In this document: positions 32,392 through 34,830 of the stretch, piece by piece | Numbering within the stretch: position 1 is the first letter of the stretch | How the letters are laid out: each line of letters starts with the position of its first letter | Assembly: GCA_044229975.1 (NCBI GenBank) | Contig: JBGARZ010000001.1 | Coordinates: 416,001 to 480,000, forward strand | Direction of reading: 5' to 3' | DNA from: Polyangiales bacterium | Lineage (GTDB): Bacteria > Myxococcota_A > Polyangia > Polyangiales > Ga0077539 | Length of the DNA: 64,000 nt | Made by a program: the position numbers and the translations under genes | Notes under the pieces: model-generated | Databases searched by the model: none | What the model was told of the DNA's origin: nothing | Seen by the model: the letters and a program-made list of their open reading frames with translations, nothing else

Positions 32392-32509
32392 TGGGAGCTC
32401 CGACCCGGCGGTAGACCGGCGGAGCCAGCGGGTCAACATCCCGGCGCCCTCCCCCCCGGCCGGCGACCCATCGGGACCTCCCGCCCATTGGTGGCAATGG
32501 AGAGTGCGT

Positions 32510-32563
32510 TGAAAAATAATTGATCACCGTGCTTGACGGATATCGGATGTGTCGGTTATCCCT
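32510..32563 (+). promoter_or_regulatory. Putative sigma70 promoter with AT-rich UP-like element for the leader/tRNA operon
   Basis: AAAAATAATT at 32512-32521; TTGACG at 32533-32538; weak -10 (TATCCC near 32557). Confidence 0.5.
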
Positions 32564-32591
32564 TGTGGGCACTCAAGGAAGTGCCTTCGCC

Positions 32592-32720
32592 ATGAACCTC
32601 CTCTTCCTCCACTCCCGCTGCCCTTCACGATCGTCGTCCGGACCGTCATCCAGTCGGTCCAGTCGCTCGTGTTGTTGCGTCGACTGCGGGAGCAGGAGCC
32701 GCGCGCTTTCATCGGGATAA
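32592..32720 (+). CDS. Putative Ser/Cys-rich attenuator leader peptide (42 aa)
   Basis: MNLLFLHSRCPSRSSSGPSSSRSSRSCCCVDCGSRSRALSSG: 15 Ser, 5 Cys; AAGGA upstream; directly precedes a hairpin and Ser/Cys tRNA genes. Confidence 0.8.
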   Translation: MNLLFLHSRCPSRSSSGPSSSRSSRSCCCVDCGSRSRALSSG

Positions 32721-32750
32721 CAAGCCCGCAGCGCGCACGTAGGTCTCGAT

Positions 32751-32793
32751 GAGGCCGGCTCCTCCCCGACGGGAAGGGTCGGCCTCTCTCGTT
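32751..32793 (+). terminator. Attenuator terminator-like hairpin
   Basis: GAGGCCGGCTCCTCCC-CGAC-GGGAAGGGTCGGCCTC (15 of 16 positions pair, including G-U), followed by TCTCGTT. Confidence 0.75.
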
Positions 32794-32896
32794 GGGGTTC
32801 AGGCTCCGCGAACGCCACCGATCGGCGCGGCCTGACGGGGCCGACGCGAGGGCCGCGGTGCGTCCGTTGTCGACAATGATGTGGTCAATGATTCTT

Positions 32897-32969
32897 CACG
32901 CCGCTCACCAGTGTGGAGCACCGGTCTGCAAAACCGGGCGTACGGGGGCAGCACCCGTCGGCGTGTCCA
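32897..32969 (+). tRNA. Atypical tRNA-Cys(GCA)
   Basis: Acceptor CACGCCG/CGGCGTG, U73, encoded CCA; anticodon arm CCGGT-CTGCAAA-ACCGG; T-arm ACGGG-GGCAGCA-CCCGT (non-canonical loop); irregular D-arm. Confidence 0.8.
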
Positions 32970-32987
32970 GTGATGGCTGGAATCTAC

Positions 32988-33073
32988 GGAAGGGCAAGCC
33001 GATTGGTTGACGGCACCTGTCCTGAAAATAGGCGAGCGTGATTGCCTTGGGGGTTCGACTCCCTCCCCTTCCG
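32988..33073 (+). tRNA. Divergent tRNA-Ser(UGA)
   Basis: Acceptor GGAAGGG/CCCTTCC, G73; D-stem GCCG/CGGC; anticodon arm CCTGT-CCTGAAA-ATAGG (C33); long variable region; T-loop TTCGACT. Confidence 0.85.
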
Positions 33074-33137
33074 CCCACTCTTGTTCATTGAAGGAGACGA
33101 CATCATGTGACGGCATCGAGACGAGTGTGATTCCTCT

Positions 33138-33222
33138 GGAAGGGCAAGCCGATTGGCTGACGGCACCGGCTTCGAATACCGGCGAGCGATGAGCCTTGGG
33201 GGTTCGACTCCCCCTCCTTCCG
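33138..33222 (+). tRNA. Divergent tRNA-Ser(CGA)
   Basis: Acceptor GGAAGGG/TCCTTCC, G73; anticodon loop TTCGAAT (CGA at 33173-33175); T-arm GGGGG-TTCGACT-CCCCC. Confidence 0.85.
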
Positions 33223-33245
33223 CCGTTTCTCCGCGTTGTTTCTTT

Positions 33246-33331
33246 GGAGGATAGGGCATCTGGTCTGCCGAGCGGTCTGCTACAGCGTCGCCCGCGGAAG
33301 CGGGTAGTCGGTTCGATTCCGGCATCCTCCG
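33246..33331 (+). tRNA. Divergent tRNA-Ser(GCU)
   Basis: Acceptor GGAGGAT/ATCCTCC, G73; D-stem GGCA/TGCC; loop CTGCTAC; variable arm GCCCGC-GGAA-GCGGGT; T-arm GTCGG-TTCGATT-CCGGC; one G-G mismatch in the anticodon stem. Confidence 0.82.
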
Positions 33332-33350
33332 CTGTTTCCTTTGTATGTTT

Positions 33351-33438
33351 GGAGGCTACGACATCGGGTGTGTCAGACACGTTGGAAGCGTGTGGCTCGT
33401 CGCATGGCGAGCAGTCGGTTCGAGTCCGGCAACCTCCG
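33351..33438 (+). tRNA. Divergent tRNA-Ser(GGA)
   Basis: Acceptor GGAGGCT/AACCTCC (one C-A), G73; D-stem GACA/TGTC; ACACG-TTGGAAG-CGTGT; variable arm GCTCGTC-GCAT-GGCGAGC; T-loop TTCGAGT. Confidence 0.85.
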
Positions 33439-33510
33439 CCCCGCCCATGGAACCCCAGCGGCACGTCGCCGGGTCGCCTCCTCCCACGCGCTCACGAGAG
33501 GCGTCGCCTC

Positions 33511-34830
33511 TCAGCGTCGACGGCTGCTGGCCGGCCCCCGCGGACGCTTCGACGGAGCGGCGACGTAGCGACTGACTGCGGATCGTCGCGGATGCGCGCG
33601 CAGGACGCAGGTGACCCTCGCCTCGTCGGCGTCGAACTCCGGCGGCGGGCTCCCGAGGTCCGCCATGGTGCGGCGCATGGTCGGCACGCCCTGCCCCTCC
33701 CCCTGGGCCAGCTTGAGCTGGAGGAAGAACCACGCGAGCGACTGGTTGCGCCACCGCGGCGACTCGCGCCCCTCGCGCAGCGCCTCCAGCGACACGCCGC
33801 GGAGCAGCGCCCCCGGAGACACCGTCTCGACGCGGTCGACGAAGGCCGTCACGCGCGTCGGGTCATCCAGCTCGTAGTCGCGGTGCACCAGGGCGTTGAT
33901 CGCTGCCTCGTGGAGCGCCCGCCGTGGGTACGTCTCGACGTCCGGCACGTCGACGTCGGTCTTCTCGAAGAGCCGCACCACCTCGGCGTCGAGCAGCGCG
34001 AGGAGGCGACGGGCCTGCTCGACGAGCGCGCCGGTGAGCTCGTGGCGCTCCGCGGTTGATTCGGAGCGATCGACGCCCCGGTAGCGCGAGAAGAAGGTCA
34101 CGGCGCCGGGGAAGAAGCGCGTCGGGTCGCGCCCGAAGAGCAGCACCGCGAAGTTGCGTGGCCGTCGCACACCCGTGAGCGCCTCGGTCACGCACAGCGA
34201 CGGCACGAGCGCGTGCAACCGAACACCGTCACCCAGCAGGTCCTCGACGCCGAGCCCATCGTCGACGCGCCCGATGCGGAGGAGGGTGTCGCGCAACGCC
34301 AGCAGGTCGAGGTCGGCGACCGTCGCCGTCGCGCACGGGCGACGATCCCAGGGCTCCAGCGCCCCCTTCCGCGTCAGCAGCTCGCGCAGCACGCCGTTGC
34401 GCGCCTCTTCCGTGCTCGACCCGCGCCGGACGTGGTGGAGCGTGTTTCCGTCGGCGTGCCGGAACATGTGCGCGTGCGGCGTCGCGGGCTGTACGAACAC
34501 CAGCACCCGGCGGTCATCGGTGTCCGCGGGCAGCTCGTGGACGAGCGGAGTGATCGCCGGGGAGACCCGATCGCGGCAGCGCGTGAGCACCATGCCGACG
34601 ACCTCCTTCAGTCGCGTCGCCGTGAGGCCAACGCGCAGCAGCTTCGGGAAGCCGTGCTCGTCCTTCGTCTCGCTGGCGCCGCACACCACGTAGCCGCCGC
34701 CGAGGTTGGGGAGGTCATTGGCGAAGGCCGAGAGCGTCGCCACCACGCCGTCGGGGCTGGCGACGTTTTCCTTCCACTCGACCTGCTCGCTCTCGCGAGC
34801 TGCCAGCTCCCGCAGATCGATCGCGACCAT
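33511..34830 (-). CDS. Schlafen/AlbA_2-domain protein with HATPase_c_4-like C-terminal domain
   Basis: ESEQVEWKE, SAFAN...GGGYVVCG; YPRRALHEAAINALVHRDY, SPG, RN...GQG. Confidence 0.85.
   Translation of the reverse strand: MVAIDLRELAARESEQVEWKENVASPDGVVATLSAFANDLPNLGGGYVVCGASETKDEHGFPKLLRVGLTATRLKEVVGMVLTRCRDRVSPAITPLVHELPADTDDRRVLVFVQPATPHAHMFRHADGNTLHHVRRGSSTEEARNGVLRELLTRKGALEPWDRRPCATATVADLDLLALRDTLLRIGRVDDGLGVEDLLGDGVRLHALVPSLCVTEALTGVRRPRNFAVLLFGRDPTRFFPGAVTFFSRYRGVDRSESTAERHELTGALVEQARRLLALLDAEVVRLFEKTDVDVPDVETYPRRALHEAAINALVHRDYELDDPTRVTAFVDRVETVSPGALLRGVSLEALREGRESPRWRNQSLAWFFLQLKLAQGEGQGVPTMRRTMADLGSPPPEFDADEARVTCVLRAHPRRSAVSRYVAAPSKRPRGPASSRRR

Follow-up and report, generated by a model that had tools for sequence, protein, structure and literature searches.

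A Candidate Leader-Peptide Attenuator Ahead of Spare Serine and Cysteine tRNA Genes in a Polyangiales Bacterium

A short Ser/Cys-rich open reading frame (ORF), competing RNA helices, and five spare tRNA genes for cysteine and serine follow one another in a 64,000-nucleotide stretch of Polyangiales DNA (the window: contig JBGARZ010000001.1 of assembly GCA_044229975.1, positions 416,001 to 480,000 of the forward strand). From the anatomy of this unit, its conservation, the codon–anticodon match across modules, and the co-variation of its helices, we judge it probable (about 0.8) that the unit is a case of ribosome-dependent attenuation controlling replacement Ser/Cys tRNAs. On sequence comparison, it is likely one of a genome-wide series of modules that descend from long tRNA arrays, the leaders of which contain all 20 amino acids.

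Leader-peptide attenuation is textbook biology for protein operons, with trpL, hisL, the multivalent thrL and ilvGMEDA leaders, and pheM of pheST as examples. In open-access PMC and bioRxiv, supplements aside, we found no description of leader-peptide control of tRNA genes. The source genome (G000) comprises 10.0 Mb at 71% G+C and is 93% complete; we refer below to two other species of the genus (G004 and G005) and to a member of another genus (G010).

Anatomy of the Ser/Cys Module

The module lies on the + strand behind a predicted σ70-type promoter, TTGACG-N18-TATCCC (32533–32562), with a UP-element-like A/T tract (32511–32521) 5′ of its −35 box. We chose this promoter by conservation, TTGACG being invariant across three species (window, G004, and G005), whereas the sole promoter match of a generic scan lay at 32491–32520. 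The form TTGAC-N17/18-TA also occurs 36–59 nt 5′ of 20 housekeeping tRNA clusters of the source genome, and a comparable A/T tract is found in G004 and G005 and in seven module promoters of the source genome.

About 25 nt 3′ of the predicted transcription start begins a 42-codon leader ORF (32592–32720, + strand), recognized by its translation and by orthologous leaders. It contains 15 Ser and 5 Cys codons and only 12 amino-acid types; Ser and Cys together account for 49%, a fraction matched by 5 of 27,329 ATG-initiated ORFs of 32–56 codons in the source genome. The Ser codons (TCC 4, TCG 4, TCA 3, AGT 2, AGC 2) cover all four Ser anticodons encoded downstream. A clear Shine–Dalgarno sequence is absent before the leader; 431 of 1,843 crude long-ORF starts of the genome have one.

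The predicted antiterminator strand (32688–32701, + strand) occupies codons 33–37 of the leader, as judged by duplex energy and co-variation, and is followed by a predicted terminator with a weak U-tract (32751–32794, + strand). Its hairpin (32751–32786) is strong and present in the minimum-free-energy fold (z = −3.85). The tail holds four U in eight positions and is degenerate relative to its orthologues, and a terminator scan made no call there. Hairpins of this family with a conserved tail also lie 3′ of a housekeeping tRNA-Met gene in the source genome and of protein genes in other bacteria. The interval from the terminator to tRNA-Cys showed no further promoter motif, and Rfam identified no known cis-regulator in the leader region.

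A preliminary description of this DNA had proposed the same order on the + strand—promoter-like element, Ser/Cys-rich ORF of 42 codons, competing antiterminator and terminator helices, and five tRNA genes—and that order is confirmed at 32533–33441. Its counts of Ser and Cys codons were reproduced, the two helices are predicted to compete for the 5′ arm of the hairpin, and the amino acids enriched in the leader are indeed those of the downstream tRNAs. Its tRNA assignments hold as well. ARAGORN calls tRNA-Ser(UGA) (32987–33077, with C32-C33 in the anticodon loop), tRNA-Ser(CGA) (33138–33224), tRNA-Ser(GCU) (33246–33332), and tRNA-Ser(GGA) (33350–33441), all on the + strand, and homology and co-variation identify the first gene as tRNA-Cys(GCA) (32897–32969, + strand). 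This tRNA is atypical—it has a 4-nt D-loop, a non-canonical T-loop, U73, and an encoded CCA—and is called by neither ARAGORN nor Rfam. It is 87% identical over 70 nt to the tRNA-Cys of a relative, an ARAGORN call at a relaxed threshold; on six homologues, both sides have changed in 8 of the 21 cloverleaf pairs, a count as high as this in 0 of 500 shuffles.

All five tRNAs also have housekeeping copies elsewhere in the source genome, to which they are ~60–67% identical, and outside the anticodon itself the anticodon loop differs from the housekeeping copy in every one of the five. Rfam returns 69 tRNA matches in the source genome, and one of the five spare tRNAs exceeds the gathering score. A relaxed ARAGORN run on the whole genome gave 7,003 calls, mostly false, and was dropped.

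Conservation and Insertion Site

Module DNA matches 16 of 61 related genomes, mostly via the tRNA bodies. The whole design (promoter, leader, antiterminator, hairpin, tRNA-Cys, and tRNA-Ser) recurs in G004 and G005 at another site. Three of the nine genomes of the genus carry the module; the other six, 81–94% complete and with 39–50 Rfam tRNA matches, gave no module match. All five metagenome contigs recovered are near-identical to G004 and encode the Cys and all four Ser tRNAs in another gene order.

Orthologous leaders (G004, G005, and the five contigs) are 39 codons long with 6–7 Ser and 3–5 Cys codons, and in each, every one of the four Ser anticodons is matched by at least one codon, and a Cys run lies 5′ of the predicted switch point. 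The leader peptide diverges across orthologues; what is kept in the three species is the frame, the stop position, the Cys run, and the four Ser codon classes, with a CCC/CSCC run conserved among the leaders.

Because VanW and nitrilase genes are directly adjacent in 4 of 4 congener loci examined, we read ~32444–34826 of the window as an insertion, its bounds approximate, that carries the module and one convergent gene. The latter (33511–34830, − strand) encodes a protein with Schlafen AlbA_2 and RecG-C domains by Pfam; the flanking genes of the module are thus VanW, CoaBC, AlbA_2, and nitrilase. Bacterial Schlafen proteins have been reported as anti-phage tRNases (PMC13056530). An AlbA_2 homologue lies beside none of the 33 other module or array loci, and we therefore leave this gene out of the mechanism.

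Energetics and Timing of the Predicted Switch

The duplex of the antiterminator (32688–32701) with the terminator 5′ arm has a predicted energy of −22.9 kcal/mol. Across 14 loci, antiterminators pair better with their own arms than with mismatched ones (−20.9 versus −17.5 kcal/mol; 0 of 100,000 permutations), a co-variation that kinship among the loci inflates. The set omits G015 and G030, close relatives of G021 and G019, and counts repeated leaders once; co-variation was scored by duplex energies because MAFFT failed to bring the antiterminators into register. In 12 of the 14 loci, the antiterminator site outperforms four control windows taken upstream. The leader stop and the terminator arm downstream of it are 36–47 nt apart in 13 of 16 loci, the other three (G019, L185, and L104) being script mis-assignments.

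When the nascent RNA between ribosome and polymerase is folded, the antiterminator forms for ribosome positions up to codon 31 in the window and codon 27 in G004 and G005 and is lost beyond, so that the predicted switch point falls just past the Cys run in all three species. Of the 15 Ser codons in the window's leader, 11 lie in the permissive zone, as do 4 of the 5 Cys codons (15 of 20 together). At equilibrium, the full-length leader favors the terminator for nearly all ribosome positions from codon 9, so the switch must be kinetic. The antiterminator result for G004 and G005 depends on folding only the RNA 3′ of the ribosome; if the RNA 5′ of it is allowed to refold, both lose the antiterminator at codons 18–24 (the Cys run). 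With no ribosome, the nascent fold is the antiterminator in the window but not in G004 or G005. A protector (1:2) helix is not consistently predicted.

A Genome-Wide Set of Leader–tRNA Modules

Inspection of the regions upstream of all 60 ARAGORN tRNA clusters of the source genome yielded ten further modules—Glu/Arg/Asp (two), Tyr/His, Tyr, Asn/Lys/Arg, Gly, Leu, Trp/Phe/Gln, Arg, and Thr with an HNH gene—for 11 in all with that of the window, covering 15 amino acids. Leaders, initially chosen by eye, follow the rule of the first ATG 3′ of the predicted promoter. At the Trp/Phe/Gln cluster, a Phe/Leu/His/Gln ORF was rejected because it overlaps the promoter, and the first ATG after the promoter was preferred.

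Cognate codons make up a fraction of 0.40–0.60 of the leader in four of the ten further modules (background 0.0002–0.02) and 0.23 in the Gly leader (0.016). The background value of the single-Tyr module is 0.04, and four modules are not significant singly (background values: Trp/Phe/Gln, 0.15; Leu, 0.08; Arg, 0.20; Thr, 0.18). The Leu leader has three Leu codons, CTG, CTT, and TTG, and the downstream anticodons are CAG, GAG, and CAA. Over nine non-paralogous modules, the true leader–tRNA pairing ranks best of 362,880 permutations; the compared genomes are kin, and permutation values are therefore overstated.

A tRNA-blind scan for an A/T tract, −35 and −10 boxes, and a first short ORF, with thresholds set after the modules were known, gave nine hits in 10 Mb, of which seven are modules. 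Among the 33 clusters with a promoter motif, ten modules have it 117–818 nt upstream and three housekeeping clusters 79–426 nt upstream, and at the remaining 20, all housekeeping, it sits so close (36–59 nt) that a leader would not fit.

Whether the codon content of leaders co-varies with downstream anticodons had been proposed as a check, and leader codons do follow the anticodons in the source genome and in G004, G005, and G010. His/Tyr leaders match in G004 and G005 and the Glu/Arg/Asp leader in G005; by BLAST against 301 genomes of the order, the His/Tyr module is strong only in the source genome, G004, and G005. In G010 we found a Phe/Trp leader and a diverged Tyr/His leader, which starts with GTG and has two codons each for His and Tyr within 11 codons, as well as one misfit, a cluster that begins with tRNA-Asn behind an ORF lacking Asn codons. 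Used as DNA queries against 31 family genomes, the Leu, Asn/Lys/Arg, and Trp/Phe/Gln modules returned no orthologous leader by BLAST, recovering tRNA bodies or a palindromic repeat. The 20 follow-up loci were mostly leaderless housekeeping clusters and included one new Phe/Trp module; BLAST with array tRNAs of relatives gave no additional Ala, Val, Pro, Ile, or Met module.

Other features were seen in and around these modules. Palindromic repeats lie between switch and tRNA or between tRNAs (C2 9900–10350, C21 ~31790, and C19 132378–132538), and that of C19 is multicopy in congeners. By eye, a second internal ORF with a Shine–Dalgarno sequence and a Lys-Arg-Lys end is visible between tRNA-Asn and tRNA-Lys/Arg (C19 ~324000–324100, − strand). 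A release-factor-like gene with PCRF and RF-1 domains lies downstream of the Tyr/His module (L193:771–1520, on C4) and of the Tyr module (C34 ~314630–314900); its first frame stops at CTT-TAG-C or CTT-TGA-C and apparently resumes in the +1 frame, a context that we take to resemble the prfB frameshift site. A tRNA-Ile with a TAT anticodon occurs in G000 (C20:281741–281814), G005, and G010 (L040; L286). A TilS match above cut-off was found in 0 of 5 family genomes tested, and members of the family with this tRNA may decode AUA without lysidine.

Modules Without a Terminator

Some modules have no terminator and are predicted to sequester the 5′ half of a tRNA instead; we regard these as leads, less secure than the module of the window. 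The three Glu/Arg/Asp modules each have an element 3′ of the stop codon whose predicted pairing partner is either the leader 3′ end or nt 1–13 of tRNA-Glu, such that the tRNA would be free with a ribosome in the Asp/Arg/Glu tract and sequestered from codon 24–25 on. Five of five His/Tyr leaders are predicted to fold onto the tRNA-Tyr 5′ end when no ribosome is present, and in cross-species duplex energies their co-variation is not clear. The anti-tRNA switch model is clean for Glu/Arg/Asp (3/3) and partial for His/Tyr, and it found no counterpart in the Leu or Asn modules.

In two Trp/Phe modules, the leader extends into or through a tRNA gene. At L062:327–644 (C16, from 42026 on), a 105-codon leader runs through tRNA-Trp with a single Trp codon just before that gene, and it has a Gln-rich stretch and a Phe codon ahead of tRNA-Phe/Gln/Gln.

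Long Arrays in Sister Genera

Sister genera carry arrays of 14–30 ARAGORN-called tRNAs with an HNH-type ORF inside and, upstream, a hairpin identical in type. The array leaders are 69–124 codons long. By the script rule, 9 of the 10 loci have a leader in which all 20 amino acids are represented; the tenth does so too when the in-register ORF is taken. Background ORFs of these lengths hold all 20 in 0.7–9.7% of cases. Within the source genome, the Arg and Thr/HNH modules have leaders with 19 amino acids (79 of 6,815 in background). An HNH gene is present in the Thr module of the source genome and in arrays of relatives, not at the module of the window.

A pattern scan of contigs returned at least 117 stretches. 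Among the matches listed, 10 are accompanied by any tRNA, 5 are arrays behind the switch, and the remainder are ordinary terminators or chance; the array loci with the switch, also among the matches listed, come from Polyangiales, Myxococcota, or delta proteobacterium records.

These comparisons make it likely that the Ser/Cys module is a specialized piece of a long tRNA array with an ancestral leader of all 20 amino acids. On the simplest reading, the amino-acid-specific cassettes would have arisen from a general stall sensor on an L-array.

Two variants were noted among the array-type loci. Arrays L022–L026 (genus g5) have a second short ORF containing Lys and Gln codons 3′ of the terminator, just before the first tRNAs (Lys, Gln); this stretch could instead be an A/T-rich internal promoter region. 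At L134, the leader-switch precedes an HNH gene; the tRNA-like sequence there is all degenerate, and ARAGORN called no tRNA.

Discussion

In the attenuation model, which the preliminary description had put forward and which these comparisons support, a ribosome stalled on Ser or Cys codons would leave the antiterminator free, and transcription would continue into the Cys and Ser tRNA genes; a ribosome moving at normal speed would cover the antiterminator and allow the terminator to form. That the leader is translated, that transcripts end near 32790, that the unit is inducible, and that the tRNAs function are steps that we infer. Within this model, loss or inactivation of the housekeeping Ser/Cys tRNAs is the favored trigger, held with modest assurance: an extra tRNA would cure tRNA loss but not a lack of amino acid, and the anticodon loops of all five spare tRNAs are unlike those of the housekeeping copies. 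A charging block or starvation is a less probable trigger, perhaps half as plausible, and any other cause has a small share.

We give roughly even odds to a wider picture of codon-by-codon "spare parts," in which the ancestral array was split into mobile cassettes with rewritten leaders and the loss of one tRNA class would induce its nuclease-resistant replacements. In some of these cassettes, the ribosome would control folding of the first tRNA, by way of an anti-tRNA helix or of a leader overlapping the tRNA gene.

A real switch might instead be a general sensor of translation stress that responds to ribosome antibiotics or any slowdown, its Ser/Cys bias incidental. Array leaders with a matching switch do hold all 20 amino acids, two modules of the source genome keep 19-amino-acid leaders, a stall anywhere 5′ of codon 32 is predicted to antiterminate, and chloramphenicol induces the L-array of Anabaena (PMC8421152). 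General stalls would likely induce the module too, yet they leave the codon match unexplained: the leader uses 12 amino-acid types and is about half Ser and Cys, and across modules and species this bias follows the tRNAs encoded downstream. We consider the general sensor improbable, and give marginally less weight still to a decayed relic, in which a leader that has lost its regulatory function precedes pseudo-tRNAs, either silent or constitutive. Decay would suit the atypical tRNAs and their low Rfam scores, the patchy distribution within the genus (3 of 9 genomes), the degenerate hairpin tail of the window relative to its orthologues, and the palindromic repeats inserted into other modules. 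It is opposed by the compensatory changes in tRNA-Cys, by the retention in three species of the reading frame, the position of the stop, the Cys run, and all four classes of Ser codon, and by the full five-tRNA set retained in another species in a different order.

The ORF might also encode a functional Ser/Cys-rich peptide, whether a RiPP precursor or a metal-binding peptide, with tRNAs that supply its synthesis or are merely adjacent. Azole-containing RiPP precursors typically have Ser/Cys-rich cores, and the CCC/CSCC run of the leader is conserved. However, the source genome, at 93% completeness, has no YcaO (PF02624) match; the neighbors are VanW, CoaBC, AlbA_2, and nitrilase genes; the peptide sequence is poorly conserved whereas the RNA helices are conserved; and sister leaders are built of other amino acids, each matching its own tRNAs. 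A peptide function is accordingly the least probable of these accounts, at very long odds, and we retain ribosome-dependent attenuation as the preferred reading.

As modeled, the unit would work like a multivalent leader-peptide attenuator but departs from that family in its target. It would share with the transcription attenuators of amino-acid operons (as defined in PMC1183508 and PMC2965389) a short ORF with regulatory codons, an antiterminator overlapping the 3′ part of the ORF, a terminator just past the stop, and multivalent sensing. Unlike them, it would control five tRNAs, the sensed molecule itself, rather than biosynthesis, transport, or synthetase genes; its U-tract is weak, prediction of a protector helix is inconsistent, and sister modules pair with tRNA instead of a terminator.

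The nearest likeness in gene content is to L-arrays and the trn operon of Anabaena PCC 7120 (PMC8421152), which have supernumerary, patchily distributed isodecoders and where induction is likewise expected under translational stress. Here, however, there are only five tRNAs and no linked HNH gene, the array content is split into amino-acid-specific cassettes of 1–5 tRNAs, and the long arrays behind this switch are those of sister genera. Control of the Anabaena array acts at initiation, through direct repeats and a repressor (PMC8421152; TrcR, PMC10272220), whereas the control predicted here is an RNA switch; the main text of PMC8421152 has 0 occurrences of "attenuat" or "leader."

T-box riboswitches (PMC7778990) also link a terminator/antiterminator choice to the state of a specific tRNA. 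Rfam gave no T-box match in the window at the gathering score or at E up to 10, and sensing here is predicted to run via the ribosome, such that an absent tRNA would switch the unit on, whereas a T-box needs uncharged tRNA. Mycobacterial polycysteine sORF attenuators (bioRxiv 10.1101/834739) similarly use a run of Cys codons in a short ORF as sensor, but theirs are leaderless and govern protein operons, whereas the ORF of the window starts downstream of its predicted transcription start and precedes tRNAs. Phage tRNAs have been proposed to evade anticodon nucleases (PMC10264068); like them, the spare tRNAs have anticodon loops unlike the housekeeping ones, but they lie in a cellular genome and not in a known phage, and the abstract of that study proposes no inducible control.

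If the terminator-less cassettes are real, they would represent control of tRNA folding or processing by the ribosome, and the cassettes as a class would be ready-made codon-specific stall reporters. The series from all-amino-acid to single-family leaders within one bacterial family displays the specialization of a sensor. For "cryptic" tRNA arrays outside cyanobacteria, the module offers a testable explanation of how they come to be expressed and of their possible purpose, namely, replacement after a tRNA-directed attack. The predicted circuit would be a direct feedback loop on the tRNA pool that could detect the absence of a tRNA, something beyond the reach of both T-boxes and the stringent response.
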